Below, in pieces: positions 5,274 to 50,816 of a DNA stretch of 64,000 nucleotides. This DNA comes from Gammaproteobacteria bacterium UBA6940 (GTDB lineage Bacteria > Pseudomonadota > Gammaproteobacteria > Pseudomonadales > UBA6940). The notes under the pieces were generated by a model, which did not search any database, was not told the origin of the DNA, and saw only the letters and a list, made by a program, of their open reading frames with translations. The first letter of the stretch is position 1, and every line of letters starts with the position of its first letter. The position numbers and the translations under genes were made by a program. The stretch is from NCBI GenBank assembly GCA_002450655.1, contig DJZY01000064.1, forward strand, positions 1 to 64,000, in the 5' to 3' direction.

Positions 5274-7877
5274 TTAGAAATCGATCTTAACGTCTGGTGC
5301 TACAGCAAGTAGGTTCTCGCGGAACATACCTTTAATCATCTGAATAACTTCTTCGTTATCAGCTTCAAATCGAGCAACAAGAACAGGCGTAGTATTTGAC
5401 GCACGAAGTAGGCCCCAGCCTTTTTCGAAATCAACACGAACACCATCGATTTGATTCACAGAGCCATTACCAAATTGGCCTTTCTCTGCTAGATCTGCAA
5501 CGATCTTGAATTTAGATTCGTCAGTTACATGAACATGAAGCTCTGGCGTAGATACTTTTTCTGGATACTTATCAAGAAGTGTATCAAGGTCATCTGTTGT
5601 GCTTGAAAGAATTTCAAGAAGACGAGCTGCTGCATAAATTGCATCATCAAAGCCGTTCCAGCGATCATTGAAGAAGATGTGACCACTCATTTCACCAGCA
5701 AGTGGCGCATTTGTTTCTTTAAGTTTCGCTTTGATAAGAGAGTGACCTGTTTTCCACATAAGAGGGCGGCCGCCAGCATTGCGAATAACTTGTGTAAGAT
5801 CAGAAGAGCATTTCACATCATAGATGATATCTGCGCCTGGGTTTGCAGCAAGTACGTGCTCAGAGAAAAGCATCATCAGTCTGTCTGCGTACACCATTCG
5901 ACCTGATGGTGTAATAACGCCAACACGGTCACCGTCGCCATCAAATGCAAGACCAATATCAGCGCCTTGTTCTTTAACAACTTCAATCAGTTTAACCATG
6001 TTTTTTGGTTGAGAAGGGTCTGGAGAATGGTTAGGGAAAGAGCCATCGACTTCAGTGTAAAGACCTGAAGCTTCAACACCAAGCTGTTCGAACAGCTGAG
6101 GCATCATGACACCTGTTACACCGTTACCACAATCAACTGCGATTTTAAGTGCTCTGGAAAGAACAATATCACCAATAAGATCGCCTTGGTAATCATCCAT
6201 AACGTCTTTTTCAAGAACTTGGCCAGTGCCCTTAGCAAGGTTGCCATCTTGAATACGGTTATAAAGATCTTGAATTGTATCACCGTAAAGTGTTTTACCA
6301 GCGATCATAATTTTAAGACCGTTGTAGTTAGATGGGTTATGGCTGCCTGTTAGCATTACACCAGTACCTTGAGTCAGCTTCTTCGCTGCATAGTAAAGAA
6401 CAGGTGTTGGAACCATACCGATATCAATAACGATAACGCCAGATTTTTTAAGACCTTTACGTAGGGCTTTAATAAGAGCAGGGCCTGATAGACGACCATC
6501 GCGAGCAACAGTAACTTCACGTACACCTGCGTCAATTGCAGCGGAACCGATTGCACGGCCGATAGATTCGACAACTGATTCGCTTAGCTCTGTAGGGTAG
6601 ATACCACGGATGTCGTAAGCACGGAAAATACTTTGAGATATTGGTGTTTCTGTTGATTCTGTTGCAGCTTCAGTTTCTGGCTGCTCAATTTCTTGGACCT
6701 CTAACTCTTTAGATTGGTCTAAAGTTTCCATTGCGTAACGCTCCCGGGAATAAGTTGGTTTTTTTGTTTTTACAGATTCTGCGTCAGATTCTTGATTGTT
6801 AAATAAGGAATCTGACATCAACTCAGAACTCTGTTGTAAATTCGAACCGCCCGTAATAGTGGCAGTGTTTTTGAGGTTATCATAAATATTCTCGTAAGTG
6901 TCAGCGATGTGTTTCAATTGGAATCGCTCTTTTCCAGGATTCTTACCACGGAAAAGATCAATCATTGCATCCCTAACCATTTCGAGATCATGGCTCAAGG
7001 CCCTATTATATAGCGAAGCAGCGATGATTAAAGCGACAACATTCAAAATTCCAAGGCCAATTGCAGTAAAAATGATCAAAAATTCATCAAAAAAGCCTTT
7101 CTGTACTTTATTTATCCACTGTGCTTTTAAACGGAGTACGTCATGAAATTTCTTATCGTAAGTGATAGCTTTATTAGGCACCCAGCCGGAATACTGGTAA
7201 ACCACGGTTTCAGACTGGTCGATTGCTTGTAGAACTTGCACTGCAACATGACCTTGAAGAATGGACGCGGATTCGGCGAACGCCTCATCTTTAGTCACTG
7301 CTGCGGTTAGCGCACCGAGGACATCTCCTGTATTTGACTTAATTTGAGCAGTCACATAAAGAAGCTCGCCTTCAATTTCGATAGTTGTACTACCAGAGCG
7401 TGTCGCATTGAAGGCATTATTGATCATGATAAAAGTAATAGCAGGTGAGAAGTTTGGATTAGGTCTGTGATTACCACGAGGGAATACAATAATGTTCTCA
7501 AGGTTTGTTTCACCTGATGCTGATAAAGGCATAGAGTCTGGCTTTTCAAGAGTAGAAACTTTAGCTCTGACGCTATTGAGTTTCGCTAAGCTTTCCACTT
7601 CTAAGGCCAAGGCATCAAGATGAGCATCGAGCTGGGTTTTATACTGCTCTAAAACTTGCTCATTCTTTTCATTGAAACTTGCTAAACGCTCTGGCTGAAT
7701 CTGCTGAGCAAAGATAATGTAAGCCAGTAATACTGGCAGTAAGAAGACGACAACTGCTGTAGGGGTAAAGTAGGCCCAGAAGTTATTACTTTTACCTGAG
7801 TTTTTTTTTGTCGTGCTACTTTTGCTACTGGTTTTTGCTGCTTTTGCTTTCTTGCCCTTAGACTTTTTCGGTGCCAT
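5274..7877 (-). CDS. Phosphomannomutase/phosphoglucomutase (C-terminal ~460 aa) fused to an N-terminal ~400-aa module: Lys-rich tail, TM1, ~230-aa periplasmic domain, TM2, acidic linker
   Basis: The C-terminal half has 'TGSHNPSNYNGLK', 'GLAFDGDGDRV', 'AGEMSGHIFF' alpha-D-phosphohexomutase motifs. The N-terminus has two predicted TM helices (VVVFLLPVLLAYIIF, FLIIFTAIGLGILNVVALIIAASLY). A single uninterrupted 867-codon frame in AT-rich DNA. Confidence 0.85.
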   Translation of the reverse strand: MAPKKSKGKKAKAAKTSSKSSTTKKNSGKSNNFWAYFTPTAVVVFLLPVLLAYIIFAQQIQPERLASFNEKNEQVLEQYKTQLDAHLDALALEVESLAKLNSVRAKVSTLEKPDSMPLSASGETNLENIIVFPRGNHRPNPNFSPAITFIMINNAFNATRSGSTTIEIEGELLYVTAQIKSNTGDVLGALTAAVTKDEAFAESASILQGHVAVQVLQAIDQSETVVYQYSGWVPNKAITYDKKFHDVLRLKAQWINKVQKGFFDEFLIIFTAIGLGILNVVALIIAASLYNRALSHDLEMVRDAMIDLFRGKNPGKERFQLKHIADTYENIYDNLKNTATITGGSNLQQSSELMSDSLFNNQESDAESVKTKKPTYSRERYAMETLDQSKELEVQEIEQPETEAATESTETPISQSIFRAYDIRGIYPTELSESVVESIGRAIGSAAIDAGVREVTVARDGRLSGPALIKALRKGLKKSGVIVIDIGMVPTPVLYYAAKKLTQGTGVMLTGSHNPSNYNGLKIMIAGKTLYGDTIQDLYNRIQDGNLAKGTGQVLEKDVMDDYQGDLIGDIVLSRALKIAVDCGNGVTGVMMPQLFEQLGVEASGLYTEVDGSFPNHSPDPSQPKNMVKLIEVVKEQGADIGLAFDGDGDRVGVITPSGRMVYADRLMMLFSEHVLAANPGADIIYDVKCSSDLTQVIRNAGGRPLMWKTGHSLIKAKLKETNAPLAGEMSGHIFFNDRWNGFDDAIYAAARLLEILSSTTDDLDTLLDKYPEKVSTPELHVHVTDESKFKIVADLAEKGQFGNGSVNQIDGVRVDFEKGWGLLRASNTTPVLVARFEADNEEVIQMIKGMFRENLLAVAPDVKIDF

Positions 7878-10791: not shown

Positions 10792-12855
10792 ATGTTATCC
10801 ACCACTAGCGTTATCTCAAGTCAATTTAGTTCTGATTATGAAGTTCTATCCCAAAGCAACCAGTCTTTCGAGTTCGTCACCCGCAGCGTTTTAGCGCAAT
10901 CATTTAAACCTTTACGAGAAATTCCTGAACAGAGTTTGCTTAATAATATTCTTGAAATTAAACCTGAACATCAGACTGCACATAACCTTTTGACAACTCA
11001 TGAGGGGTTTCAAGAGATCCTATCAGCTTCAGAGCTCTTTAATAAAATGGGAGAGGCGCGAAGTGAAACGCAAGAGTTGCAGATGTATGAGTCTCACGTC
11101 AGTATACGAGCACTTGATGGTGATGCAAAAGATGTTGCTATTCAAGAAGCCCTAGACCAGCGAGCTGCAGTCTTAGTCAATGAGCAAGGGCAAGAAGCAC
11201 CGTTTAAAGCGATTGATGCAAATCAAATTGCCGATGAAATGATTAAGCACATTTTACATGATGGTGTAACCAGCGTTCACCCAGAGCTTGACGAACATTC
11301 TCTTGAATCTCTTGTACTCGATTCTGCAGAAATGGCTGCAAGTATTCATAACGAGTTTGCATTGGTTGAAGGTGTGCAAAACTACATCTTAACAAAATTA
11401 ACGGATATCCATCACGCTCACTTTTTAAATGACGTGCCATGGACTGAAGACGCCCAGAAAAGTGCGGTCGACGCCATGATTGAAGGCTTATCGGCAAAAG
11501 GTGCTGAGAGCAGTAGTGATCCAAGTGCGGTCAGCGAATTACAGTCCTTCGTTTCAAATCTGCCTGCAAATTACACAGTATCAAATCAAGGTAGTTATTT
11601 TAAAGCACGTAAATCTCAGTCAAATGAAACAGGGCTAGCACGACTTGATGCTACACAAATTAAGACTGCAAAAGGTGATGTGTATGAGTTGTTGAGTACG
11701 CTCACGGATCACCAAAAGTTTATGGTTGAGCAATTAACAAAAGCAGAGCTTGTGTATAGTTCTAAGTTTGTGAGAGGCTTTCAGGTTTTGTTGGCTCAAT
11801 ATCAGAATAAAGGCGATCAATCTTCAATTAAGTTTCATGATACGAGCTTGATGAGAAGGCTGATGAGGTCTCTCGATAAAGAGCAAAAAAGCAAACTTGG
11901 CACTTTAGATGGTTCATATGAGAAAGATAAACGAGCTGTACAACGTTTACTTCATTCTTTAGATAGCTCACAAATTGAGGCTGTAGAAAAGTTAACACAT
12001 ATTAAAGCAGAAAAAAATAAAGTACTAATAGGGCAAGGCGCATATGGTACTGTGCGCCTTGCTCGTAATGTTGAAACAGGTAAACTTTTTGTTATTAAAA
12101 AAATGCTTGACCGTAGTGCTGCTGAGCATGAAATTAAAAGTAATAATCTTGTTGGTGACGGTGCGCATTTTGTTACAGCAATAGATCACGCTCATGTTAA
12201 AACATCATGTTTTAATGGTGACTCTGTCGATAAATCCTATTTAATATTCCCGTATTATGATGCTGGTGATGGTGCACACATGATGTACAACCTGCAGCAG
12301 TTGAAAAACCAGAATCCTCAATCTGGTGAAATGAAACAAAAATTTATAGCCTATACGCTGTTAAGTGCTGTTGATGATTTGCATCAGCGAGACTTAGTTC
12401 ATCGTGATATAAAACCAGAAAATTTACTTTTTTCTTCTGAAGGTGCTATTGGACTTTCTGACTTCGGTTTAGCAGAAAATGACCACAACCCATATCGAAA
12501 CAAAGAAGCTGGAACACCAGGGTATTTGCCACCAGAGTTTGGTACTCAAAATTATACTGGCAAAGGGCATGACCTCTATTCAGCAGGTATGGCGATGTTG
12601 GAATTTGCGACAGGCCAATATATTGAAGAAGGTAAGACTATTAACCTCAAAGTGAATGGTCAAGATATCCCTTTATCCTTTAATGGGCCATTAATGCTTT
12701 GCAATGGTATAGACCCTAAAGTGCTTAAAAGTAAACTGCATTTTAACTCGTACAATGAAGTTATTGCTGGTCTGCTGGTAACAAATAGCGCTGCGCGTAT
12801 AGATGCAAAAAAAGCAAAAGCTTCACCTTACTTTGCTGACTTTAACGCCCTCTAA
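10792..12855 (+). CDS. Eukaryotic-like Ser/Thr protein kinase (LegK-like). ~400-aa N-terminal non-kinase region plus C-terminal kinase domain.
   Basis: 'IGQGAYGTV' G-loop, 'VIKKM', 'HRDIKPENLLF', 'DFGLAE', 'GTPGYLPPEF'. Confidence 0.8.
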   Translation: MLSTTSVISSQFSSDYEVLSQSNQSFEFVTRSVLAQSFKPLREIPEQSLLNNILEIKPEHQTAHNLLTTHEGFQEILSASELFNKMGEARSETQELQMYESHVSIRALDGDAKDVAIQEALDQRAAVLVNEQGQEAPFKAIDANQIADEMIKHILHDGVTSVHPELDEHSLESLVLDSAEMAASIHNEFALVEGVQNYILTKLTDIHHAHFLNDVPWTEDAQKSAVDAMIEGLSAKGAESSSDPSAVSELQSFVSNLPANYTVSNQGSYFKARKSQSNETGLARLDATQIKTAKGDVYELLSTLTDHQKFMVEQLTKAELVYSSKFVRGFQVLLAQYQNKGDQSSIKFHDTSLMRRLMRSLDKEQKSKLGTLDGSYEKDKRAVQRLLHSLDSSQIEAVEKLTHIKAEKNKVLIGQGAYGTVRLARNVETGKLFVIKKMLDRSAAEHEIKSNNLVGDGAHFVTAIDHAHVKTSCFNGDSVDKSYLIFPYYDAGDGAHMMYNLQQLKNQNPQSGEMKQKFIAYTLLSAVDDLHQRDLVHRDIKPENLLFSSEGAIGLSDFGLAENDHNPYRNKEAGTPGYLPPEFGTQNYTGKGHDLYSAGMAMLEFATGQYIEEGKTINLKVNGQDIPLSFNGPLMLCNGIDPKVLKSKLHFNSYNEVIAGLLVTNSAARIDAKKAKASPYFADFNAL

Positions 12856-18164: not shown

Positions 18165-19727
18165 TCACTGTGAAAGAAGCTTCTTTTCAATATCTTTAAA
18201 AAATGGTGTATTCAAAGCTTCTTTGACAGAGAGCCGTGTTTCAGAGTTTTCATCGAGTAAACCAATAATGACTTGATCGAGTGTTGTAAAACTTAAATTG
18301 CTAAATAATGGTTTAAGTCGACTAGCCCCTAGGCAATTATTTTCTTTATCAAATAAGAGTGATGTTTCAAAGCCCATCACTTTGATGTGAGCCTCTTTAT
18401 GACAGTGAGGTACTTTACCGAGCTTTAATTCCAGCAGCGTTAAACCTAATGCAAAAGCATCATGCCCCTTACCTGTGTAGGTGGCTTTTTTCCATTCTGG
18501 TGGGAAATAGCCAGGTGTACCTGCCATTCGAGATTTATAGTGCGTAAAGTCATTGCCTTTTTCACTTATACCATAGTCTGCCAATACAATCTGACCATCA
18601 ACAGAGTGCATAAAGTTTTCCGGCTTTATATCACGGTGGATAAAGCCTTTATCATGTAGGGTTGCTACATTCTTAATATATTCAAGGCTAATATTCTCAA
18701 TTAAGTCTTGTGCTGCGACTGCATCTGTATTTCTTAATTCAGCAATATTTTTTGAAATTTTTCGACCATGCCCTGCATCATAGAGGGGTAGAACAATAAA
18801 TGAATCTGTTGATGAAATTTCATCGCTCTTTTGTTCTATTGATATATAGTCAATCATATGAATAAGACCATGTGCACGACCAATTTCTTTGTATTTTTCA
18901 ACTTCACGAATTGCATTTTCAGAATCTTTCATATGCTTTATAGCAACAAGCTCAGGTTCACCTGGTTCTGGGTTTATTACTTTTGCTAAAGCCACTATGC
19001 CATAGGCGCCTTGGCCTAAAATTGTTTTTTTCGATGTGAAATGCAGATGTGTAGAGCTGTTAATCGCATCAATAATATCTTGATCAGGTTTTTCAATGAG
19101 TTCATAAATAGTGCTTTTTGTTGATTTTATTTGGGTCGCTTGGTGTTGTACAAAACCTGTAGTACTCCTTGTTTGTAGCCTAAAAAGGCTTCCAGATGTA
19201 CTCTGTGTGTAATTATTGATATTTTGACGGAAGAGAGTATCAAGGGTAGGCTTTAATTCATTTTCTTTTTGAGCTGCAAATAATGGGTTAGCGTAAATTG
19301 CATCACTGATTTCTTTCTTCGAATTTGACTGAGTTTGTGTATTCCATGGGGTGTTTTGGCTAAATAAACGATATTGAATTTGATTGATAAGCTTTTGAAC
19401 CGCAGCTTCGAGCAACTGTGGCGAGAATTTTGGAGCTGTAATGTCTAGCTTTGTTTTAATAGAAGGAGAGCTAATACCTAAGTGTTTAAAAATAAAAGAT
19501 GGAATATGAGTATTAGGTTTAATAATACCTGTAAAGCTTCTTTGTTGTGGTGGTAGAACCAGTGCGCTTTGAAATATGTGGTGTAGCCGTGCTGGAACTC
19601 TTGTCACTTCAAGTGGAATGAACTGGCTTGCCAGCTTTTGACTGGCAGTCTTTGTTATAAGCTGCCTTTGAGTAGTAGACAGTATATGTGGAGTTTGTTG
19701 AAGTGTTCTAACAGGTGCCGATGCCAT
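18165..19727 (-). CDS. Eukaryotic-like Ser/Thr protein kinase (LegK-like), paralogous to 10792..12855
   Basis: 'LGQGAYGIV', 'VAIKHM', 'HRDIKPENFM', 'DYGISE', 'GTPGYFPPEW...TGKGHD'. Same C-lobe signature as the other kinase. Confidence 0.8.
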   Translation of the reverse strand: MASAPVRTLQQTPHILSTTQRQLITKTASQKLASQFIPLEVTRVPARLHHIFQSALVLPPQQRSFTGIIKPNTHIPSFIFKHLGISSPSIKTKLDITAPKFSPQLLEAAVQKLINQIQYRLFSQNTPWNTQTQSNSKKEISDAIYANPLFAAQKENELKPTLDTLFRQNINNYTQSTSGSLFRLQTRSTTGFVQHQATQIKSTKSTIYELIEKPDQDIIDAINSSTHLHFTSKKTILGQGAYGIVALAKVINPEPGEPELVAIKHMKDSENAIREVEKYKEIGRAHGLIHMIDYISIEQKSDEISSTDSFIVLPLYDAGHGRKISKNIAELRNTDAVAAQDLIENISLEYIKNVATLHDKGFIHRDIKPENFMHSVDGQIVLADYGISEKGNDFTHYKSRMAGTPGYFPPEWKKATYTGKGHDAFALGLTLLELKLGKVPHCHKEAHIKVMGFETSLLFDKENNCLGASRLKPLFSNLSFTTLDQVIIGLLDENSETRLSVKEALNTPFFKDIEKKLLSQ

Positions 19728-36821: not shown

Positions 36822-38471
36822 ATGAATGAGAGGAAGTACATAATAATGAAAATTGATAATAGCCAGCAAGCACAGCAACTACCCAGTTTGCACACTGATG
36901 ATAATATTGAAGGTAAGTTAGCGCAAGTTCAGAACGCACCTGCAGTATTACCAACAGCATCATCATCAACTTCTGCTGCATATATGGAGCAAGCTTCAAA
37001 TTCAAGCCATTTATCAAAAGCTATTTTAGCTAATGACCTAAACCTCTTAGACAAAGCCGTACTTGAACCGCTTTTACAAACTACAAATGCTGATGAGCGT
37101 AAAGCAACTCTCAGAGCTTTAAAAGAACAGCTTGCTTCAACAAAAGAAGCATTACATCCGCGACAGGGGGTTATGCCCTTGCTTCTAAAAAGCAGCGATG
37201 CAGAGCTTAAGGGAATTGGCGTTCAAGCTATGAGTCAGTTTATGCAAACTGGTAAAGTTAAACTTGCTTCATTAAGATCACCTGCATATCGAACGCCGGT
37301 AGAGCTACGTGAGGCTGCAAGTCATCAATGGATTAATCAGGTTAAAGATTTGATTAAAAAATCAAAAAACACTCTTGCTTACCATGATTTTTATAATATT
37401 CACAATGATGCTAACGAGCTGGATTTTGTAAAAGCGTTTTCTTACAATATGTTGGTGGATATTCGCCCAGACTTGCATGAGAAGCAATTAGAACCTGTAG
37501 TTGAATTTACTCTCTTTAAGCTAACCTCAGCACAAGGTGACTCTTTTGCAACTGCAAATAAAGCGGCGCTCGATAAAATAATTCACTTACCTTCTATGAG
37601 TAATGCCGAATTGAGACAAGCATTGATAAAAGAAGGCTTTACACTCAAAGTTGTTGCAGGTTTTGACAGCCATAGCCAGTTTGTGAATATAGCAAAATCA
37701 TTTGAGAAAGGTTATCAATCTTTTGCTCAAGATATACAAGCTGATGCTAAACGAGTGCCTGTTAAAGCGACTGATGCAGAAATTGCAAAAGAATTAGCTT
37801 CGAAAAAAATTGAGATGCGATCAAAATACACTAAAGAAGAAATTACAAAAAATATTAAAGACACCAAGATAGCGGTCCGAGTCTTTAAGCGTTGTATTTC
37901 AATTGCTGGTGATGAACTACATCCAAATCATGCATATGCCAAAAAATACCTCGCTGTAGCTGCAAAAAATGATTTGCTCTTCAAAGCCTTTACAGATATG
38001 CAAAAACTGCCATTAGATTTAACCGGACTTGTTTTATTGAAGCAATTGAGTTCTGCTCTGGATTCAAAGGAAGTCGCTAGCCCTTATGCTCGCCCATTCG
38101 AGCAAAGCTATAAGCAAGTTCTTTCAATTATGCCAAATGATGACTTAATTGGTTATGCAAAAAATCCTGGCGAGCACCAAGATTTTAAACCTGACTTTGT
38201 GAAGCAGTTGGCTGACAATATGAATAAAGGCACATTTGCAATTATGCAGGGGAGTGCTGCAGGTAAAGCTCTAGAGCTTGGTCAGCAATTCCCTGAGTTA
38301 AAAGAACCTTCTTTAACATTTGTGAAAGGCCGTCTTGAAGCATTTGCATTTGCAAAACAGCCAAACCTTCAACCAGCACAGATGTTTGCTCAGCAAGCCG
38401 GGCATCCATTGCAGGGGTTTGCATTAGATTTAATACAAAGAGCACAGTCCTCTGCACCTAAGGCAAGCTGA
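36822..38471 (+). CDS. Hypothetical all-helical protein (effector-like). First gene of a two-gene unit.
   Basis: 549-aa ORF. No TM. No recognised domain. A 2-nt gap to the next ORF. Confidence 0.5.
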   Translation: MNERKYIIMKIDNSQQAQQLPSLHTDDNIEGKLAQVQNAPAVLPTASSSTSAAYMEQASNSSHLSKAILANDLNLLDKAVLEPLLQTTNADERKATLRALKEQLASTKEALHPRQGVMPLLLKSSDAELKGIGVQAMSQFMQTGKVKLASLRSPAYRTPVELREAASHQWINQVKDLIKKSKNTLAYHDFYNIHNDANELDFVKAFSYNMLVDIRPDLHEKQLEPVVEFTLFKLTSAQGDSFATANKAALDKIIHLPSMSNAELRQALIKEGFTLKVVAGFDSHSQFVNIAKSFEKGYQSFAQDIQADAKRVPVKATDAEIAKELASKKIEMRSKYTKEEITKNIKDTKIAVRVFKRCISIAGDELHPNHAYAKKYLAVAAKNDLLFKAFTDMQKLPLDLTGLVLLKQLSSALDSKEVASPYARPFEQSYKQVLSIMPNDDLIGYAKNPGEHQDFKPDFVKQLADNMNKGTFAIMQGSAAGKALELGQQFPELKEPSLTFVKGRLEAFAFAKQPNLQPAQMFAQQAGHPLQGFALDLIQRAQSSAPKAS

Positions 38472-38473
38472 TC

Positions 38474-39394
38474 ATGATAAATCCTGCTTCTTCAATAACG
38501 CCTACTCTGAAACATGAAACGTTAGCGCTTTCTGCTCAGAACCAGTTTGTGTCAAAAATTACACCAATTCAACATAAGCAATTTATTGATTCAATGGCAC
38601 CACATATTATGGCCTTTATCAATAAAACATTTAAAGGTGATTTAAATGAAACTGCTCATGAAGAAAGTAGGCTTGCAGGTATTTGCGATACAAATATTTT
38701 CGACTTGTTTCCAAAGGGTATCAAAGAGTATTCGAATTCCTTCATTGGTTTTACGAAAGTTTATGAAAGTTTTGTCAGAGACACTAAGTCAAAAATCTTA
38801 AATATGGATTTATCTCACTTTGAGTCAGCTGCAGCCAATGATGAAGATCTTCAGGCTGTTGAGTTTAATTATGGCATCTCATCAGGTGATTGCATGTTAA
38901 ATCATATGTTGAGTGCAGCTGGGCAGCTTACTCATCCAGATCACCTTGTTGCAAAGAACTTTTTAATTCGGCTTGTTGTAGAAGAGCCTGATATTGCTCG
39001 TAGAACACTTGGGCAGAAAATTACCATTCTTAATGATGTGCAGCCATTGGTCGATGGTGTATCCGATAAAAGCAAAGAAGACTTAAGTGCTGGCTTGCAG
39101 TTTAATTCTGGCAAGCATCACATCGCTGATTTTATCAAAGAAACTATTGCTACGGCGCCAAGCAATGGTAGCACGCTTATAGGTGGTACCTTGGAGGCGT
39201 ATTGTCATTCACTCGTCAATTTACAAGATAAGATTCAAATTAAAGCTGGGGAGGTTGTGAATGCCGATAAAGCCCTAGAAGAGCCTCGCAAAATTAACCC
39301 TGCCACAGGTGTAGAGTATCCACCACAACCTACTCATATGATGGAAACAGAAGGTATGGTGATGGATAAATATGGCATGTATGTGTACGAATAA
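38474..39394 (+). CDS. Hypothetical protein (effector-like) with a possible Cys/His pair
   Basis: 306 aa. 'YGISSGDCMLNHML' and a downstream 'SGKHHIADF'. Tentative only. Confidence 0.45.
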   Translation: MINPASSITPTLKHETLALSAQNQFVSKITPIQHKQFIDSMAPHIMAFINKTFKGDLNETAHEESRLAGICDTNIFDLFPKGIKEYSNSFIGFTKVYESFVRDTKSKILNMDLSHFESAAANDEDLQAVEFNYGISSGDCMLNHMLSAAGQLTHPDHLVAKNFLIRLVVEEPDIARRTLGQKITILNDVQPLVDGVSDKSKEDLSAGLQFNSGKHHIADFIKETIATAPSNGSTLIGGTLEAYCHSLVNLQDKIQIKAGEVVNADKALEEPRKINPATGVEYPPQPTHMMETEGMVMDKYGMYVYE

Positions 39395-39401
39395 GAGCGC
39401 C

Positions 39402-40034
39402 TTACATTATTTCTTTTTGATGATAGCGCGCACGTGCTGCCCGCCATTCTTGAATTTGAAAATCTGGTGAGAATAAAGTTTCGTCTATATCATCGAGCAA
39501 TAGTATTAATCTAAAGATAAAACTAGTTTCATTTATGCTTTCTAGGATTTCCTTTGAAAGTTCTGTATTTTCACTTTTTCTAGCTTTATCAAGTTTTATG
39601 CATTGCTCTAATCTTGTTTCTGTTAGGTTGAAATAGTATTCCTTTGGACGAAGTAGATGTGTGTTGAAGCAATTCTCCAAAGAGCTCATGCCATATACAG
39701 GGTCTGATGCTTGAAAAAAGTTATCTAAAATGCTTGTTTTTCGTAAAGATAAAAGCAGTAAAAATATTTTGTCTTGTTTGAATCTTGGAATGTCTTTTCT
39801 CAATAATTTTTCTTGAATATAAAGAGCCAGTTTTACCCATTCAATTGTAATTTCTTTATTTTGTTTTTTTAACCCGACTTGCATGTTTGTATATTCGCTT
39901 AGAACAAGCCAGTCCCAAGAGCCTGGAATTAGTATTTTATTGGCAACTGCGAGATCAAATTCAATTTTAATTTGATCTAATGGTAATTTCCATAATTCTT
40001 TGATAAACATTTTAATAGCCCTTTGTATTATCAT
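39402..40034 (-). CDS. Hypothetical cytoplasmic protein. Overlaps the upstream gene by 23 nt.
   Basis: 210 aa. Very AT-rich codon usage. Translationally coupled to 40012..41022. Confidence 0.45.
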   Translation of the reverse strand: MIIQRAIKMFIKELWKLPLDQIKIEFDLAVANKILIPGSWDWLVLSEYTNMQVGLKKQNKEITIEWVKLALYIQEKLLRKDIPRFKQDKIFLLLLSLRKTSILDNFFQASDPVYGMSSLENCFNTHLLRPKEYYFNLTETRLEQCIKLDKARKSENTELSKEILESINETSFIFRLILLLDDIDETLFSPDFQIQEWRAARARYHQKEIM

Positions 40035-41022
40035 AAAACTCTAAAGCATTACTGAAATCAAAACCATAGCGTTGAAAGGCAGTCTGGGCAATATCCAAAG
40101 ACTCACTTGGAACTTTATAGTGACCAGTGTGATTACTCAGCTTTAAGCCATATCTATAATCATTAAATACGCCTATTTCTACTTCACCAGCTGCATATAC
40201 AGGACGGCCACCACTTAGCACTGCATGACTAATAGTCTTATCTCCAATATAAACAGTTGGGGCAACGATAAGTTCACCTTTTTCTGTTACTACAAACTTT
40301 AATGGCAAGGCATCTGGATGTGGCGATTGCAGGTAATCACTCATCCTTTGGGGTTCAACACCAATTTTTTGTGCTAATAGAATTTCATCTTTAAGGTTTT
40401 CAGGCATGCCATTCTCATACAAAGCCCGATTTTCTAAAAGCGACTCAGGTACATCAGCATCTGGCACCAAGTCAGGTTTTTCTTTAATAGAAAAGTTCGG
40501 CTTATCTGTAGCTCGCTTCGCAACAAGAATCGCTTTCGCAATACCTGCAGCCTTGGTCGCCATCGCAGCAGGGGAGACATTTTCCCCAGCAACCTTACCT
40601 TGATCCCATAATGTACCAGAAACAAGGGCCTGAGCGTCTTCTAAAAGATCAGCTCCCAGCGCTTTCAATGTGCCTATAGGGTCTTGCACCAATGATTCAC
40701 TTAAAGACTTAAGTGCTTTCAAGGTTTCAATAGGGTGGCGAATCACATAGCTTAAGTTATCAACTTGAGATTCTAACCCCGCAATAAAGCCCTGGCCAAA
40801 TTCTAAAGCTTTTGCCATAAGAGAAGGTGATGCAGCTTGTGTTAGGGTTTCCTCTAGAGGCGTATATCCACCAATCTCAGCGGTACTTGTGGCTACTTGC
40901 TGCTGAACAGGCTTTGCAAGTCCTTGAAAGCTTGCAATAACCACCATCATTAGAAGAATGCTTATTGAGGCATATTCAGTCAGCCCATAGCCATGTTGAA
41001 GTTTGAAAGTTCTCATCTGCAC
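40012..41022 (-). CDS. Hypothetical protein with Flp/class-III-prepilin-like N-terminal leader and Gly-rich C-terminal beta domain
   Basis: 'MQMRTFKLQHG|YGLTEYASISILLMMVVIA' resembles G|xxxxEY Flp prepilin processing sites. Confidence 0.5.
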   Translation of the reverse strand: MQMRTFKLQHGYGLTEYASISILLMMVVIASFQGLAKPVQQQVATSTAEIGGYTPLEETLTQAASPSLMAKALEFGQGFIAGLESQVDNLSYVIRHPIETLKALKSLSESLVQDPIGTLKALGADLLEDAQALVSGTLWDQGKVAGENVSPAAMATKAAGIAKAILVAKRATDKPNFSIKEKPDLVPDADVPESLLENRALYENGMPENLKDEILLAQKIGVEPQRMSDYLQSPHPDALPLKFVVTEKGELIVAPTVYIGDKTISHAVLSGGRPVYAAGEVEIGVFNDYRYGLKLSNHTGHYKVPSESLDIAQTAFQRYGFDFSNALEFYDNTKGY

Positions 41023-42641: not shown

Positions 42642-43085
42642 ATGAAAGCTGAGCTGAATAATCTGGTGATTTACGATGGTGTTTGCCACTTTTGCAATTA
42701 TTCCGTGAACTTTATTATTCAGCATGATCCTCATGCTCTTTTTACTTTTGTGCCTATACAGTCTCAAACAGCACAATGTATTTTACAGACATATGGTTCT
42801 CAACAAACCGCCGATAATTTCGATACCATTGTGCTGATAAAAAATAGGCGGTGTTTTGAACGTTCAAATGCTGCATTAGAAATTGCGCGATCTTTGCAAA
42901 AGCCATGGCCTGTATTCTATGGCTTGAAAATTATACCTACTCTTCTGCGAGATTGGTGCTATAACCTGATTGCTCGCAATCGATACAGGTTATTTGGGCA
43001 AAGCCAAGTGTGTTTAATGCCAACACCAGCGCTTAAGGCTCGTTTTATAGGCTTGGATGAGGTTGCTGCTAAAAGACATGATTGA
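42642..43085 (+). CDS. Thiol-disulfide oxidoreductase DCC (DUF393) family protein
   Basis: 'YDGVCHFCN' motif. Confidence 0.8.
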   Translation: MKAELNNLVIYDGVCHFCNYSVNFIIQHDPHALFTFVPIQSQTAQCILQTYGSQQTADNFDTIVLIKNRRCFERSNAALEIARSLQKPWPVFYGLKIIPTLLRDWCYNLIARNRYRLFGQSQVCLMPTPALKARFIGLDEVAAKRHD

Positions 43086-43487: not shown

Positions 43488-44327
43488 TTAAGAAATATAC
43501 ACATTGCTCGTGTCTGATAGTTCGAACATATCAACCAAGTGTTTATCTTTAGATGACAAATAAAGATCACCTTGCACAAAAGGTTTATTGTGGTTATCTG
43601 CTTTAATGTTTGGGCAATTCACAATCACAAGATCTTTTGGAAAATAACTTGGCAGTGTTATGAGTTCAGGCAAGTGCCTTAGAGTAACTCGACCATTGAT
43701 AGAAGAATCACCTCCTATGGTAAAAGACTCGAGCTTTGGGCAAGACTCTATACGAAGGTCATCATAAAAATTGCCAGAATTGATTGCTTTAATGCCGCAG
43801 TTCACAATTCTCACTTGGCCATCCACATCAAAGTTTTGTGGTAATGATTCTAATGACGGGTTATCAAGAAGCCCTACATTATTAAGGGAGTAGATGTCTG
43901 GTAATGAAGTTGTGCTTTGGCCTTTAACACGAACCTCAGCTCTGTTGCCTCGCTTATCGAGGTTATCGAAGTAAAAACCATTTTCGTTCACACCATGTTG
44001 TGAGCGAAGAGATGTTGTCAGCTTTTTAATGGCTGCTGCGTCAGCAGATAATGGCTTAGGCTTTAAAAGAGAGTTAAGAGACTGACTCAGTTGTTTATAG
44101 TGTTGAGTTATTGTGTTTGTGACTAGGTTAAACAATTTAGCAAAACACGCTTGAATTGGCTTGGTGTTTATTTTAGAAAAACAGATGTTGTTACTTTCAA
44201 CTGATGAAAAGGAAAATCGGGAAACTTGGTTTTCCCTTGATGTTTCAATTACACTTAAGCGGCCTGATAGGTTAGTTTGGTTTTTAGGTAAAAAGAAGTG
44301 GAAATAAGGCGTTATTGTATTTGTCAT
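43488..44327 (-). CDS. Leucine-rich repeat protein (bacterial LRR, Cys-containing 'xCPxLxxL' repeats)
   Basis: 'IESCPKLESFTIGG', 'IVNCPNIK', 'LRHLPELITLPS' repeats. Confidence 0.55.
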   Translation of the reverse strand: MTNTITPYFHFFLPKNQTNLSGRLSVIETSRENQVSRFSFSSVESNNICFSKINTKPIQACFAKLFNLVTNTITQHYKQLSQSLNSLLKPKPLSADAAAIKKLTTSLRSQHGVNENGFYFDNLDKRGNRAEVRVKGQSTTSLPDIYSLNNVGLLDNPSLESLPQNFDVDGQVRIVNCGIKAINSGNFYDDLRIESCPKLESFTIGGDSSINGRVTLRHLPELITLPSYFPKDLVIVNCPNIKADNHNKPFVQGDLYLSSKDKHLVDMFELSDTSNVYIS

Positions 44328-45128: not shown

Positions 45129-47213
45129 ATGCCTCACATTTATTGTCATCAATGCTTTCCGAATGCACCTTTAGAGCAAACCCCCTTAAACCCCGTTAAT
45201 TCACTACATACCATTAACTTACAAAATCTGATTTGCAATGGAAATCATAACTTTGCCGCACAACGCGTTTCATCTGTTCGCTCTACAATAAATAGTGTTG
45301 CGCCAACTTCATATTTGGTTAATCAAACACCTGCGCATGCGGCTTTGCGTCAATGGGTCGAGAAGGGAACCGCAACTGATAGAGACAGCCGCTCATCAGT
45401 TGCGACACAGTTGTTAGATTCAGGTGCCTTTATCAATAGCTCTGGAGCTCTAGAAGTACAGGGGCCTTGCCGTATTGCAAACACCCTTATCGAGTCTTTA
45501 CCTGATAACCTCGTGGTGGTTGGGGATTTGTTTCTTTCATCTTGCCCTAATCTCAAGGCATTACCTGATTTTATGCAAGTGACAGGTAAGCTTGCATTAA
45601 GTGATTGTCAGTCAATTACTGAGGTGCCTGAGTTAATCAATGCAGGCTCATTAGCCTTGATAAACCTTCGTAATTTACAAAAGATAGCAGGTTCTTGTGC
45701 TCAATATGCTGGAGATGTGTTCATTGATTCATGCCGTCGATTAGATCAGATGCCGGTTAGCTTTGAGGTTGGTGGCAAGCTTACTATCAATAACTGTCCT
45801 AGTTTGCCAGAATTGCCGCTTAATTTATCAGTGCATGGTGATTGTAAAATTTCTGAGTGTGAGGACTTAAGACGATTACCTCCGAAAGCTGAGTTTTATC
45901 AACATCTTGAAGTTGTTTGGTGCTCTCAATTTAATTTGATTCCCGATACTACGCTTATACGTGGCAATATTAATGTGTCGAATAATCAGAGCTTAAATCG
46001 CTTGCCAAGTGCTCTTTTGCAACAGGTTTCTATTAATCACCTGGGTAACGAGCGTGAAATTAATATTGCGCAGTCTGGTTTTAGCGACCGATTTTTAGAT
46101 CAGGTCGAAAGCTCTCCATTAGCACGAATTTTTTATACCGGAAATAGCACATTTAGTGATATGGAATTTTCTGACTCTGAAAGTGTAGATACGCGCTTGC
46201 ATATTGTAACTAAGCCTGGGAATGAGTATGAGGATATTAGTCAAGAACTCTTTCATGAGCCTGATGCTCATACCTTTATCCAATATGCTGGCAATAAGGC
46301 GGTTGATGATGGTGGTGTAAGTCGACAAGCTTTTACTGAAGGTTTAAAGCAATTGATTGTGCAAAATCCAATCTTTGTTAAATCTTCGACTCGACAAGCT
46401 TTTATTAATTCTTTTGATATCTCAAATCAAAAAGAAGGTCATCAACTAAAGCGTGATGCCTATTTGGCTGGTGTGTTTTTAGGTGGCTTTAATCAATTAA
46501 ACCTTGGTACGGCCAAATATTTTGATGAGGTTTTCTATAAGTCGCTTCATGATGTTGTCACTAATATGAAAGATGTGACGGTTATCTATGATGCGCAACA
46601 GGTTGCAGATTTTTTAGAAAACCCACAAACAGGTATTAATGACGTTTTACAGTTGGTTAAAACCTTAAGACCAAGCATGTTAAAGCCAAGTATGTTTGAG
46701 CATTATCGTCAAGATTATGCGCAAGAAGAGCTTCGTGAGCTTAGAGGGGAAACACTTTTATATTTAAATCTTGCGCAAGGTTTAGAAAATGCTGGCTTTC
46801 ATTTTGAAAATGACTACATGGCGTTTTATAAAAGCCTAGTTGGTGTGGTTGATTTAAAGCAAGAGCTTATAAGCCATATGAAGTATTTACAAAATGAGCA
46901 TACGCATGTTTCTTCAACAGAGGCCAAACAGGTATTAGACTGGGTAAAGCATGCAATTCATGAAGCTGATGATGATCGTATGCCTAAACTCATGCAAGAT
47001 TTAACAGGTGCTGAAAATATCCGCTTAACAAAACCTTTCTTTGTGACACTAGCAACATTTAATAAAAAGGATGTTGTGTTTAATTCACATACTTGCAGTT
47101 TTTCACTAGACGTCAATATTGAAACCTTTAGAGATTTGGTGAAAACCAATAATTTTGAATACTTTAGGGATAATTTTTTAATAGGTGCAAGTAAGGTTTT
47201 GAACGGGGCTTAA
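45129..47213 (+). CDS. Large LRR effector-like protein (N-terminal ~300 aa of 'LSSCPNLKALP / NNCPSLPELP' repeats plus ~400-aa C-terminal domain of unknown function)
   Basis: At least eight consecutive about 20-residue LRR units with Cys at the conserved Asn position. Confidence 0.6.
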   Translation: MPHIYCHQCFPNAPLEQTPLNPVNSLHTINLQNLICNGNHNFAAQRVSSVRSTINSVAPTSYLVNQTPAHAALRQWVEKGTATDRDSRSSVATQLLDSGAFINSSGALEVQGPCRIANTLIESLPDNLVVVGDLFLSSCPNLKALPDFMQVTGKLALSDCQSITEVPELINAGSLALINLRNLQKIAGSCAQYAGDVFIDSCRRLDQMPVSFEVGGKLTINNCPSLPELPLNLSVHGDCKISECEDLRRLPPKAEFYQHLEVVWCSQFNLIPDTTLIRGNINVSNNQSLNRLPSALLQQVSINHLGNEREINIAQSGFSDRFLDQVESSPLARIFYTGNSTFSDMEFSDSESVDTRLHIVTKPGNEYEDISQELFHEPDAHTFIQYAGNKAVDDGGVSRQAFTEGLKQLIVQNPIFVKSSTRQAFINSFDISNQKEGHQLKRDAYLAGVFLGGFNQLNLGTAKYFDEVFYKSLHDVVTNMKDVTVIYDAQQVADFLENPQTGINDVLQLVKTLRPSMLKPSMFEHYRQDYAQEELRELRGETLLYLNLAQGLENAGFHFENDYMAFYKSLVGVVDLKQELISHMKYLQNEHTHVSSTEAKQVLDWVKHAIHEADDDRMPKLMQDLTGAENIRLTKPFFVTLATFNKKDVVFNSHTCSFSLDVNIETFRDLVKTNNFEYFRDNFLIGASKVLNGA

Positions 47214-47377
47214 TGTTGTAATCTGCTGTTATAGATAAAAGCGTGATCCATTAGCTGTTAAATGGTTAAGTTGTTGAAATATATAGTATTAATTTTGCGC
47301 AAAATTCCAGTTATGAGTATTTAAACACCAATTCTGAAGTGCTACATTACGCTTTTTAATCTACAAGGAGCCTAAGA

Positions 47378-47920
47378 ATGGTAGTACGTTTTCCTAGCGC
47401 CGCTGAAATTGTGAAAACCCTCGAAAGTGATGCAAAACTTGGGGCACAGTATAAAGATCAAAAGCTGTTGCAAAAAATAGGTAATACATTTGCTTTTAAA
47501 GATACTGTAGTGTCAAAACAGTCGCAGACAGCTTCATTAATGACGGATGTTCCAAGTAGCTCTAAGCGAAACTCAAGCTTGATGAAAGAGCTACTTGCAG
47601 CCCTTGATCGAGTACCCAGAGAAACTGTGACAGTTTCAACGTGCCATGCGGACAAAGACACGCTATTACAAGCACTTAAAAGTGACCCTAAACTGAAGAA
47701 GCAGCTTAAAAATGAAAAGCTTCTTGAAGCCTTGGCTGAAAATTTTTCACATAAAGAAGTGGCCGAAGCTTGGCGTCCAAAGCAGTATGCGGTAGCGCAA
47801 GTGCTTCATAGTCTTAAAGTATTGAACGGTAACCTAGGCAATAATTTTGATGCTATTCAAGAGTGTGCCGATGCGCTAGATCGTATTCCGAGTGTGACAC
47901 TGACACAAGTTATGCGCTAA
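47378..47920 (+). CDS. Hypothetical protein with internal tandem duplication of a ~30-aa helical unit
   Basis: 'ESDAKLGAQYKDQKLLQKIGNTFAFKD' matches 'KSDPKLKKQLKNEKLLEALAENFSHKE'. Confidence 0.45.
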   Translation: MVVRFPSAAEIVKTLESDAKLGAQYKDQKLLQKIGNTFAFKDTVVSKQSQTASLMTDVPSSSKRNSSLMKELLAALDRVPRETVTVSTCHADKDTLLQALKSDPKLKKQLKNEKLLEALAENFSHKEVAEAWRPKQYAVAQVLHSLKVLNGNLGNNFDAIQECADALDRIPSVTLTQVMR

Positions 47921-47974
47921 TTTTTTTGCAAAATTTTTATCAACATGGATGTTGATGTCCTCACATTTTATTGC

Positions 47975-48454
47975 TTATGCCTGAATATTGACTCGTGGCT
48001 GACGAGCTGCGCCTTGCAAATCCATTAATTTATTTAAACTACGTTGAGCACGATCTAGAGCGCTTATATTCGCAGCACTGGGTGGCTGAGCTTTATAGTG
48101 TTTAATTGTATTTTCATAATGTTCTATATAATTTATTTTTTCATCAAAGGCTGAGTCCATTTGTGCTTTCATTTCATTGGTGAGCTTTAAGCCTTCTTTT
48201 GAAGTGACAGTGGGTGGTAACTCAATACCAAGCTCACCGTTGTTCCACATTTCGTCATACTCACTTCGAGACATGCTTGTGAAGTCATAATGCCGTTGCG
48301 CAATATCTTGTTGTGGAAGGGCATAGAGTGGTTGTGAGTTGGAAGCTTCTGTTGAAATAACGCCTTGAGGTGCTGACCTTATTAAGCCTTCCTGTGCTGT
48401 AGCCTGCTCTGAAAGGTTCGCGATATTGGTGTATGCACTTGCTAATACCTGCAT
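47975..48454 (-). CDS. Hypothetical protein
   Basis: 159-aa ORF. No motif. Confidence 0.4.
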   Translation of the reverse strand: MQVLASAYTNIANLSEQATAQEGLIRSAPQGVISTEASNSQPLYALPQQDIAQRHYDFTSMSRSEYDEMWNNGELGIELPPTVTSKEGLKLTNEMKAQMDSAFDEKINYIEHYENTIKHYKAQPPSAANISALDRAQRSLNKLMDLQGAARQPRVNIQA

Positions 48455-48598
48455 CTCTTCATCCTTCTTTTAATACCTGAACTGGTAATGGCAAGATATA
48501 TGCCAGTGTCGAGAAGTTAAAATGATTTCAGCGGTTTACCTTTCTTTCTGATCTATTCCTGTATTAGTAAGTAAAACTGACAAGAAAAAGGATTTTAT

Positions 48599-49027
48599 AT
48601 GCGCTTCACAATCTCTAAAAAAATATCTAAAACAATACCTACTTTTATTGCACTCTTTCTTTTAGCTGGTTGCAGTAGTGATACGCCAGCTCAGCCTAAA
48701 GTTAAAACTCAATCTCTCGAAGTGACAGCATCTGCTTATAATTCTGTGACAAGCCAAACTAAAAAAGGCAACCCTGCATTAACAGCATGGGGCGATACTT
48801 TAAAGCCTGGCATGAAAGCGATTGCAGTTTCTCGGGATTTAATTCCCCTTGGTTTAACCCATGGTACTCAGGTTCGTATAGAAGGCTTGGACGATATCTA
48901 TACGGTGCGAGATAAAATGAATAAGCGCTGGACTAAAAAAATTGATATTTACATGGGGACAGATATCAAAGCTGCACGAGAGTGGGGTGCTCAGAAAGTC
49001 ACAATTACTTGGATACCTCCACAGTAG
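48599..49027 (+). CDS. 3D-domain lipoprotein (MltA-like C-terminal domain; cell-wall-associated)
   Basis: Lipobox 'LLAGCSS'. 'VTASAYNS...IAVSRDLIPLGL...IYMGTDIKAAREWG' 3D signature. Confidence 0.75.
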   Translation: MRFTISKKISKTIPTFIALFLLAGCSSDTPAQPKVKTQSLEVTASAYNSVTSQTKKGNPALTAWGDTLKPGMKAIAVSRDLIPLGLTHGTQVRIEGLDDIYTVRDKMNKRWTKKIDIYMGTDIKAAREWGAQKVTITWIPPQ

Positions 49028-49145
49028 GGTTGTTGCTTAATACACAATTTTTACTGAACTTCTTTGCTATTCGTCTTGCTGTAAAGTAATCTTGTCTACT
49101 TCTATAGCTGTAGCATAAAGCGTTGATACCAAGGAATTCAGTGAT

Positions 49146-50816
49146 ATGTCTCTTTCTCGTTTAGTTGGCTTAGGCCTCCTTGTTGCTCCTGCAAGCCTTA
49201 TGGCTCAAGAGGCGCAAGAATCTCATGAGTGTGTTGTTAGTCAGCTTGAAGAGGGGTTGACTTGGCCTGAAGGCACGGAAATTACAGATATTGATATCAA
49301 TGTCGATCCTATTTTTGGTGATCCAGACTCTGGTGCTTTTCCATGGCTTTACCACCTCGCCAACACACTCCACATCAGTACGCGAGATTCTGTGGTTGAG
49401 CGAGATTTACTGTTTAAAGAAGGGGATAAGCTCGACCCTTTACGTCTGCAAGAGACAGAACGTTTATTACGCAGCCGACGTTATTACAGCCAAGCCAAAG
49501 TCACTCTAGATGAAAACTGTGCTGATGGTGCCAAAGTTAATGTCGATGTGCATGATGTTTGGACATTAGAGCCTCATGTTGAATTTGATAAATCCGGCAC
49601 AGAATCAACCTATGGTTATGGTTTTGAAGAAACAAACCTGTTTGGCTTTGGTAAAACACTGCTATTTTCCAAATATTCCAATGATCAACGTGAAGGTCAT
49701 TTAATAAAGTATCATGATCCAAACACTGGCTTTTACAGAAGCACTTTAACCTTGCTTGCTGCTGATAATGACGATGGCCATGCTTACTCTGGAAGTTTGA
49801 TTAAGCCTTTTGAATCCCTTGAATCCACTTGGTCTGCTGGATTAAACGGCTATGATGTGCGTCAACAACGTTATTTGTATGATGCATCTATTGAGTATGA
49901 TCGCTTTGGTGAGTCTGATAATTTTGCAGAAGGTTTTATTGGCTGGCGTTTAGGTGATGTTGTCGATAATAGTGTGACACGCTTATTTGTTGGTGCTTCT
50001 TTTAGAAATCAATTTTATTATCCACTAGGTATCACGCAATACGATACCTCTGTGCCAGAGCATCAGCATGGCACAACTTATTGGGCTGAACTTCAATGGT
50101 TGAAGCATGACTATAAAGAAATGGTGAACCTTGAAGCCATGAACAGAATTGAAGATATCAACTTTGGTTTAGTGTCTAATTTCAGGCTTGGTTTTTATAA
50201 GGCGCAAACGGGAAGTGTCGATACAGGTGTTCGTGCTCAAGGTGGATTATCGAAATACTTCCAGTTAAGTGACAACCAGTTTATTCAAGCAAGCCTTTCG
50301 TCAACAGGTTTATTTGATGGTGGTACGCTTTATGATGCTGCAACAGCTGGCCGCATTGCTTATTTCCATAAACAAAAAATTGCTGGTGAAAATGCGCAGT
50401 TTTTTGCTGAATATAAAGAAGCAAGTTTAGTTCGTCCATTTGGTCATCATTACCTTGAGCTTGGCCCAACTCAAGGGGCGCGCGGTTATGAAGCACGTTA
50501 CCAAACAGGTGAACATCGTCAGGTTATTACGCTTGAAGAACGTTGGTACGGTCAACATGAGTGGTTCTCACTGTTTTATTTAGGGGCTGCTTTGTTTTAT
50601 GATGCAGCTCATGTCTGGGGGGATTCCCCAGTTGATCTGTCACAAGAAGGCTGGTTACACTCGGCGGGCTTTGGTTTTCGTATAATGACGAATCGTTTAG
50701 GTGGTCGTGAAGGCGGTGGTGTCAGTGTGCTGCATATTGATTTTGCAGGCCCTGTAGGACCAGATCGTCCAGTTGATTCAGGCCAAGTGCTTGTGACAGT
50801 GAAGCAAGGTTTTTAA
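49146..50816 (+). CDS. Putative outer-membrane beta-barrel protein (Omp85/surface-antigen-like)
   Basis: Signal peptide. Alternating amphipathic beta pattern. C-terminal '...VTVKQGF' aromatic terminus. Confidence 0.45.
   Translation: MSLSRLVGLGLLVAPASLMAQEAQESHECVVSQLEEGLTWPEGTEITDIDINVDPIFGDPDSGAFPWLYHLANTLHISTRDSVVERDLLFKEGDKLDPLRLQETERLLRSRRYYSQAKVTLDENCADGAKVNVDVHDVWTLEPHVEFDKSGTESTYGYGFEETNLFGFGKTLLFSKYSNDQREGHLIKYHDPNTGFYRSTLTLLAADNDDGHAYSGSLIKPFESLESTWSAGLNGYDVRQQRYLYDASIEYDRFGESDNFAEGFIGWRLGDVVDNSVTRLFVGASFRNQFYYPLGITQYDTSVPEHQHGTTYWAELQWLKHDYKEMVNLEAMNRIEDINFGLVSNFRLGFYKAQTGSVDTGVRAQGGLSKYFQLSDNQFIQASLSSTGLFDGGTLYDAATAGRIAYFHKQKIAGENAQFFAEYKEASLVRPFGHHYLELGPTQGARGYEARYQTGEHRQVITLEERWYGQHEWFSLFYLGAALFYDAAHVWGDSPVDLSQEGWLHSAGFGFRIMTNRLGGREGGGVSVLHIDFAGPVGPDRPVDSGQVLVTVKQGF

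Follow-up and report, generated by a model that had tools for sequence, protein, structure and literature searches.

The 64,000-nt stretch analyzed here (hereafter the window), positions 1 to 64,000 of contig DJZY01000064.1 from Gammaproteobacteria bacterium UBA6940, carries a pair of adjacent minus-strand genes that we interpret as a likely polymorphic toxin and its immunity protein. Both open reading frames (ORFs) reported in the initial annotation are present, one running from a GTG at 41022 to 40012 (336 aa) and the other from 40034 to 39402 (210 aa). Gene callers, including the Joint Genome Institute (JGI) and NCBI records, place the start of the toxin gene at ATG 41016 (MRTFKLQHG..., 334 aa) and the GTG at 41022 is an alternative start. 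With its stop codon TAA at 40014..40012, the toxin gene therefore occupies 40012..41016. The partner gene occupies 39402..40010 and encodes a putative immunity protein of 202 aa, which is its length in every public gene call, and this protein is predicted to be cytoplasmic and probably helical. The toxin protein was found on 12 contigs, 3 of which are NCBI metagenome-assembled genome (MAG) records, and in all of them it is named "hypothetical protein". Copies of the locus that are the same or nearly the same stem from marine metagenomes, including Tara.

The two genes had been described as translationally coupled through a 23-nt overlap, which results from taking the longest ORF of the partner (40034..39402). 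An AAGGG Shine-Dalgarno sequence is located at 40019..40023 on the minus strand, inside the last toxin codons and 8 nt before ATG 40010. In two other alleles of the locus, alleles 2 and 3, an in-frame stop precludes the upstream partner start, and the conserved N-terminus of the partner in other alleles, M[FI]xx[ED][IL]WKLP, aligns to Met9 of the window ORF. Since the Shine-Dalgarno sequence, the public gene calls, the in-frame stops, and the aligned N-terminus all favor the second ATG, at 40010, this is almost certainly the true start and the overlap is a longest-ORF artefact. The tight spacing, on the other hand, stands. The toxin stop and the partner start are separated by 1 nt in the window allele (TAA-A-ATG) and by 12 and 17 nt in the other two allele classes. 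Also, a terminator scan found no terminator between the genes. The promoter and terminator scans gave counts at the shuffle expectation. Thus, the tight linkage of the two genes holds despite the lost overlap. The partner gene was correctly described as AT-rich, as its GC content is 31.4% compared to 40.0% for the window, 44.4% for the N-terminal part of the toxin, and 38.3% for the tip, and it ranges from 31.2 to 31.9% across all alleles.

The C-terminal part of the toxin, which we refer to as the tip (residues ~195-334, ~135 aa; 40015..40434, minus strand), was analyzed with a homology profile and an AlphaFold2 (AF2) model. A word-based search of 5.8 billion proteins returned only four relatives of the full toxin protein. 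One of the four, P0004, contains a typical RHS-core terminus (YRYYDP...NLYTFSLNNPLKYFDPDG), then a linker, and finally a C-terminal tip that is 41% identical to that of the window, and its gene lies downstream of SpvB and TcdB/RHS genes and upstream of a small ORF. A profile of the C-terminal ~140 residues was searched with full HMMER against 1.84 billion representatives, and the matches were counted as clusters at 50% identity. The tip family comprised 809 clusters at E<=1e-3, 404 at E<=1e-10, and 90 at E<=1e-30, with members in cyanobacteria, actinomycetes, myxobacteria, and proteobacteria. In 138 of the 150 best matches, the tip ends no more than 10 residues from the C-terminus, and the lengths of the proteins range from 123 to 3,776 aa. 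The N-terminal modules that precede the tip are unrelated to each other and include RHS_repeat, SpvB with TcdB_midN and RHS, DUF6531 with RHS, eCIS_core (DUF4157), ALF repeats with PT-HINT, and simple Sec or lipobox leaders. A domain found at the extreme C-terminus of proteins with such different N-termini fits the definition of a polymorphic toxin sensu Zhang/Aravind.

Rhs/YD-repeat toxins have RHS/YD repeats and a core that ends in a PxxxxDPxGL-type motif ahead of the tip, and RHS parts were found in the relatives P0004, P0010, P0083, P0015, P0024, and P0061. The window toxin itself had no match to RHS_repeat or to any other Pfam model and does not belong with the Rhs/YD-repeat proteins. The comparison with named families of polymorphic-toxin C-termini, which the initial annotation had suggested as a check, was negative, as no Pfam or NCBIfam model matched the window tip and none recurred among 72 family members. 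All the names given to family members in their source databases are "hypothetical protein". There was no PDB match to the tip and, hence, no relative with a solved structure was found. Pfam, NCBIfam, and PDB sequence searches with both proteins, with leader, carrier, and tip fragments, and with the other partner alleles gave nothing meaningful; matches to DUF7138, DUF6437, serpin, and nitrophorin were discarded, all having E>0.01. Six family members (P0008, P0009, P0017, P0149, P0074, and P0056) have an atypical layout with tandem copies or an N-terminal tip. Three others of ~450 aa (P0086, P0096, and P0108) have the tip behind a lipobox leader and N-terminal regions that are related to each other, and these may be lipoprotein toxins of the SitA or outer-membrane-exchange type. 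The locus that encodes P0004 (L002, 1-12049), probably a Tc-type toxin operon in fragments, contains a gene for a sigma-70 factor of the extracytoplasmic function (ECF) type, SpvB-like and TcdB/RHS genes, and P0004 as a separate gene, with a 106-aa ORF and part of a Tn5-type transposase after it.

The C-terminal block from ISHAVLSGGRPVYAAGE to NHTGHY that had drawn attention earlier is a genuine conserved domain. Residue conservation was counted over 150 representatives. H264 was conserved in 150 of 150, H299 in 149 of 150, G277 in 149 of 149, N202 in 147 of 147, E211 in 146 of 150, and K240 in 145 of 150, and [S/T]297-G298 was essentially invariant. This pattern points to an active site. The AF2 model of the tip has a mean predicted local distance difference test score (pLDDT) of 90.1 and a predicted template modeling score (pTM) of 0.86, and it shows a compact alpha/beta domain with the order helix-hairpin-helix-hairpin-helix-strand, for which the earlier term "Gly-rich beta-strand domain" was imprecise. 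The two invariant His residues, the near-invariant Lys, and the [S/T]-G-H loop suggest phosphoryl or phosphodiester chemistry. With low confidence, the tip could be a hydrolase or transferase whose cytoplasmic substrate contains phosphate, for example a nucleic acid, a nucleotide, or a phosphoprotein. The PHPT1/Janus phosphohistidine phosphatase (catalytic K21/H53/S94), whose query was checked against 2ai6_A, gave no alignment to the tip with hhalign, hmmalign, or hmmsearch with 1000 shuffles. PHPT1 is kept as a structural lead only and the tip possibly uses PHPT1-like phospho-His chemistry. The tip may represent a new enzymatic toxin fold. A family that is nameless in the searched libraries and has a confident predicted structure is a ready target in the search for a new toxic activity.

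Four variants of this one chromosomal site were compared. These are the window and L003, a 6,480-nt JGI contig that differs from it by one base; L092/L093, which hold a sub-variant of the window allele; L001/L004/L005, which hold allele 2; and L006–L008, which hold allele 3. With blastn, the window and L001 are 99.1% identical down to 40379, after which there is no alignment until 39524, where it resumes. Sliding identity is ~55% inside this interval compared to 97–100% outside of it. The 5' edge is sharp. The window and L004 have zero mismatches from 41100 to 40411, and the first mismatch, at 40410, comes right after the N202 codon that ends the motif ALYEN. The 3' edge is gradual and lies at about 39450-39520, in the last ~30 partner codons. 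The exchangeable cassette was placed at 39521..40410 on the minus strand, which covers the tip from codon 203 and the first ~165 codons of the partner. Between the window and L001/L004, toxin codons 1-202 are identical (606 nt), while amino acid identity is 59% in the tip and 35% in partner residues 1-170. Between the window and L092, the tip is 91% and the partner 80% identical. The N-terminal part of the toxin is constant and the tip variable among these close strains, with three allele classes plus one sub-variant, and the partner follows the tip in all alleles and diverges in step with it. Tip and partner behave as one exchangeable cassette across the four strain variants.

Synonymous divergence (dS) and the ratio of nonsynonymous to synonymous divergence (dN/dS) were calculated by the Nei–Gojobori method for the window and L092. 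The N-terminal part of the toxin has a dS of 0.08 (dN/dS 0.05), and the flanking matE and 306-aa genes have a dS of 0.08–0.11. In the tip, dS rises to 0.79 (dN/dS 0.06), and it is 0.62 (dN/dS 0.17) for partner residues 1–170. Therefore, the alleles of the cassette greatly predate the genomic background around them, with allelic lineages about 10-fold older than the flanks, and both genes are subject to purifying selection. Old alleles under purifying selection are as expected for toxin–immunity alleles that are kept and shuffled by recombination. Cassette exchange can be seen here in nature with unusual clarity, as one breakpoint was pinned to a single codon.

The partner has no signal or transmembrane segment (maximum Kyte–Doolittle hydropathy over 19 residues, KD19, of 1.15), and there was no Pfam, NCBIfam, or PDB match to it. 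Its AF2 model is helical and has low confidence (pLDDT 60). The only relatives of the partner are the three allele classes themselves. The others are 43-44% identical to it overall and ~35% over residues 1-170, and the last ~30 aa are kept between alleles. Other tips are also followed by small genes. A stand-alone tip of 144 aa in Microcoleus has a 190-aa ORF 7 nt downstream, and the tip in L002 has the 106-aa ORF downstream. The partner is most likely the cognate cytoplasmic immunity protein.

Upstream of the tip, the toxin was divided into a predicted export leader (residues 1-34; 40915..41016, minus strand) and a carrier with its linker (residues 35-194; 40435..40914, minus strand). As read from the sequence, the leader has a basic n-region, a class-III-like motif, and a hydrophobic core of ~15 residues from A16 to F30 (maximum KD19 of 2.05). 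The motif, G9/YGLT-E14-Y15 (40972..40992, minus strand), is preceded by the short basic stretch MRTFKLQH and has Gly at −1 and Glu at +5, as in the general class III signal. It also fits the Flp pilin rule G/XXXXE(Y) (PMC12075869). A loose regular expression for class III signals matched only this leader in the six-frame translation of the whole window. The initial annotation had read the N-terminus as a Flp/TadV-processed prepilin. The motif and the hydrophobic stretch next to it are real, but prepilin identity found no further support, as the Flp_Fap and TadE profiles that had been proposed as a check, as well as Tad_N and N_methyl, had no match at E<=10 to N-terminal fragments of 36 and 60 aa or to the whole protein. 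The 64-kb window was found to have neither tad, cpa, pil, or gsp genes nor a prepilin peptidase, and the syntenic loci L001, L004, and L092 had no tad/cpa, pil, or gsp locus. After the core comes a candidate site for signal peptidase I (SPase-I), G32-L33-A34/K35-P, and then what appears to be a flexible linker rich in Pro, Gly, Gln, Ser, and Thr. This linker stands where a pilin would continue the alpha1 helix that is packed on its globular head. Other short carriers of the same tip have plain Sec signals or lipobox/lipoprotein signals. The sole nucleotide difference between the window and L003 is a Gly9Val change at 40991. Every allele class keeps Gly9, which at least 31 contigs carry, compared to Val on a single contig and, thus, this change decides nothing. 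We cautiously consider Sec export with SPase-I cleavage to be the most likely route for the toxin, and give a low probability both to an uncleaved signal anchor and to prepilin-type processing. For the leader, a Sec signal is more likely than the Flp-prepilin reading, which is unproven.

The carrier consists of a Gln/Ser/Thr-rich linker and an Ala/Leu/Lys-rich region. It holds a glycine-zipper-like FGQGFIAGL and one 18-residue internal repeat (HPIETLKAL / DPIGTLKAL), and our guess from its composition is that it is helical. The carrier is 99-100% identical among strain variants and had no relatives outside of its own locus, so that these ~160 aa appear to be lineage-specific. No carrier paralogues, orphan tips, or immunity cassettes were found elsewhere in the window.

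Taken together, these features make it very likely that the pair serves an uncultured marine gammaproteobacterium as a chromosomal module of polymorphic toxin and immunity. The suggestion of a C-terminal toxin module with a cognate immunity-type partner, made in the initial annotation, is strongly supported, as the tip is homologous to the very C-terminal ends of RHS, Tc-type, PT-HINT, and extracellular contractile injection system (eCIS)-cargo proteins and is exchanged together with the partner. The data show this homology, the cassette structure, the purifying selection on the two genes, and their tight linkage; toxicity, neutralization by the partner, export route, and target are inferred from them. 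Polymorphic toxins with cognate immunity are a system type that is already well known. The toxin is built from a predicted export leader, a lineage-specific carrier of ~160 aa, and a C-terminal toxin domain of ~135 aa. In the mechanism we propose, it would be exported and then released or displayed, and the tip would enter competitor cells and act on a cytoplasmic target. The partner would bind and neutralize the tip in the producer and in kin cells. Recombination swaps tip and putative immunity gene together between one breakpoint exactly after the codon for Asn202 and another near the 3' end of the partner gene, which is conserved. Through this joint exchange, near-identical strains hold different, anciently diverged alleles and could discriminate kin from non-kin.

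Several observations weigh against this interpretation. The 64 kb contain no identifiable secretion system or delivery partner, and a 30-kDa periplasmic protein would have to reach the cytoplasm of another cell. The structure model of the partner is poor. The 190-aa ORF of Microcoleus and the 106-aa ORF of L002 are not homologous to the partner (hhalign probability 0.1-0.3%) and, since these distant downstream ORFs are unrelated, the term immunity rests on position and on co-variation within one lineage. In addition, a minority of the family carries 2-4 tips in tandem, partly degenerate and joined by acidic/Gly-rich low-complexity linkers, and in some of these copies the conserved Lys or His is gone. 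The tip of P0074 is N-terminal and precedes Ntox28 (above the Pfam cutoff), and in P0056 the tip precedes an Ntox35 match below the Pfam cutoff. These tandem and N-terminal placements mean that the tip is not always a terminal payload.

Another possible explanation is that the toxin is a pilin–toxin fusion. The class III signal would be cut after Gly9 by a TadV/PilD-type peptidase and the helix would insert into a Tad, type IV, or type II secretion system (T2SS) (pseudo)pilus, which presents or releases the tip at target cells. Sec signals do not usually have an acidic residue where the h-region begins or ends, and such a fusion could explain the one seen here. The short basic leader, the G9-x4-E14-Y15 motif abutting a hydrophobic stretch in agreement with the Flp rule, the uniqueness of the motif in the window, and the retention of Gly9 in all allele classes all point in the same direction. 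In having a G/xxxxE[Y] motif followed by a hydrophobic helix, the toxin resembles Flp pilins and TadE/TadF/TadG (KilL/M/N), a group that includes large minor pilins such as TadG/KilN whose C-terminal domains are modular (PMC12075869). Also, no toxin has yet been identified for the Kil Tad system. However, the window toxin differs from these pilins in that it lacks a match to the pilin profiles, a tad locus (or pil or gsp genes) in the window or the fetched syntenic loci, and a pilin-like beta-domain after alpha1. Instead of continuing as an alpha1 helix, the core runs into G-L-A/K-P and the Pro/Gly/Gln/Ser-rich linker. A toxin tip with an immunity gene is not known for any pilin, no other carrier of the tip has such a leader while several have ordinary Sec or lipobox signals, and one natural contig has Val at the −1 position. 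By our rough estimate, a G-x4-E-[YF] abutting an h-region would arise by chance about 0.1-0.5 times per genome. We therefore consider a pilin–toxin fusion unlikely. Similarly unlikely is the extended proposal that a prepilin leader mounts the polymorphic toxin on a Tad, type IV, or T2SS-like filament for delivery of the tip, with strain-specific, exchangeable warheads. If the pilin-like leader did function, it would link polymorphic toxins to type IV filaments. If true, the extended proposal would give polymorphic toxins a delivery route of which we found no description, and it would offer one possible explanation of how Tad-type "killing pili" come to be toxic.

A host-directed role seems very unlikely. 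In this case, the organism would be host-associated, the toxin would be an effector acting on a eukaryotic cell, and the partner would be a metaeffector or chaperone that regulates or assists it, an option that the initial annotation had left beside toxin and immunity. The two eukaryotic-like Ser/Thr kinases and the many family-less ORFs in the window are as in host-associated bacteria, the nearest named relatives by ParE include Ca. Endonucleobacter and Endozoicomonas (~68-70% identity), and the tip family also occurs on Tc-type and eCIS carriers, which often target eukaryotes. However, the toxin has a Sec-type N-terminal leader rather than a translocation signal for dedicated injection, and no injection system is found nearby. 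The exchange of tip and partner between strains, with deep divergence in a near-identical background, is a signature of interbacterial toxins and their immunity proteins, and the partner is predicted to be cytoplasmic and is translationally linked to the toxin gene, like immunity proteins. The least probable explanation, to which we give hardly any weight, is an intracellular, non-exported toxin–antitoxin (TA) or abortive-infection module. The operon layout would suit such a module, with two genes, one for a toxic-looking enzyme and the other for its closely linked, low-GC partner. An export leader and a 160-aa carrier on the toxin would not, nor would the secreted delivery scaffolds on which homologous tips ride. 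The toxin gene comes first and the partner second, the partner is larger than the toxin domain, and Pfam/NCBIfam indicated no PADLOC or TA-type domain, although PADLOC itself was not searched.

As a polymorphic toxin–immunity pair, the locus shares features with several known systems. Rhs/YD-repeat and Tc (TcB–TcC) toxins carry the same tip behind the RHS core terminus and on SpvB/TcdB/RHS fusions, have a small gene downstream of it, and combine conserved scaffolds with variable tips. Unlike these, the window toxin has no RHS/YD shell and no PAAR, VgrG, or TcdB parts; its 334 aa comprise only a leader and linker ahead of the tip. The division into a constant N-terminal part and a variable cassette of C-terminus and immunity gene, split at a short conserved motif (here ALYEN), is similar to CdiA-CT/CdiI. 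The peptide motif at which CdiA alleles switch is VENN. In contrast to VENN in CdiA, the YEN/FEN of the window system lies within the toxin domain and is retained by all carriers, and the window system has no two-partner secretion (TPS) domain, filamentous hemagglutinin (FHA) repeats, or CdiB. A short carrier, a C-terminal cytotoxic domain, and an immunity gene directly downstream are shared with signal-peptide-only polymorphic toxins, colicin/pyocin-like bacteriocins, and SitA lipoprotein toxins, as are the Sec or lipobox leaders of other members of the tip family. The window toxin differs from them in having no lipobox Cys, colicin T/R domains, lysis gene, or identified receptor/translocation module. 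Finally, the PT1–PT9 domains of Nachmias et al. (bioRxiv 10.1101/2021.10.19.465003) are, like the tip, unannotated domains at the C-termini of diverse polymorphic-toxin carriers that include DUF4157/eCIS and RHS proteins. Identity of the tip with any of PT1–PT9 was ruled out on size, fold, and taxonomy.

On one side of the pair is the gene of a MatE transporter, transcribed divergently, and on the other side is a convergent gene for a 306-aa protein. The neighborhood is an ordinary chromosomal one with aroQ, accB, accC, prmA, DCC1-like, DoxX, and RidA genes. The ParE protein of the window is at most 70% identical to those of named genomes of the Oceanospirillales type, such as Oleiphilaceae, Motiliproteus, Ca. 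Endonucleobacter, and Endozoicomonas. The two kinase ORFs, at 10792-12855 (plus strand, 687 aa) and 18165-19727 (minus strand, 520 aa), have C-terminal eukaryotic-type Ser/Thr kinase domains and long unannotated N-termini, and they are suggestive of a host-associated lifestyle. At the thresholds used, ORFs of 150-694 aa without a Pfam match are found among the housekeeping genes at 25749-29124, 36822-39394, 43488-44327, 45129-50816, and 53072-57103. A phosphoglucomutase/phosphomannomutase ORF of 867 aa (5274-7877, minus strand) has an N-terminal extension of ~400 aa without a Pfam match, which may reflect either a gene fusion or an ORF that was called too long.

Two genes downstream of the pair is an orphan ORF of 549 aa (36822-38471, plus strand), whose length varies between strains (549, 539, 535, and 519 aa). 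The flank on this side of the pair is ~90% identical between the window and L001 compared to 99% on the other side. At 42642-43085 (plus strand), the DCC1-like thiol-disulfide oxidoreductase protein is 87% identical between the window and L092 compared to 98-99.6% for its neighbors, which makes this gene a second spot of local divergence.

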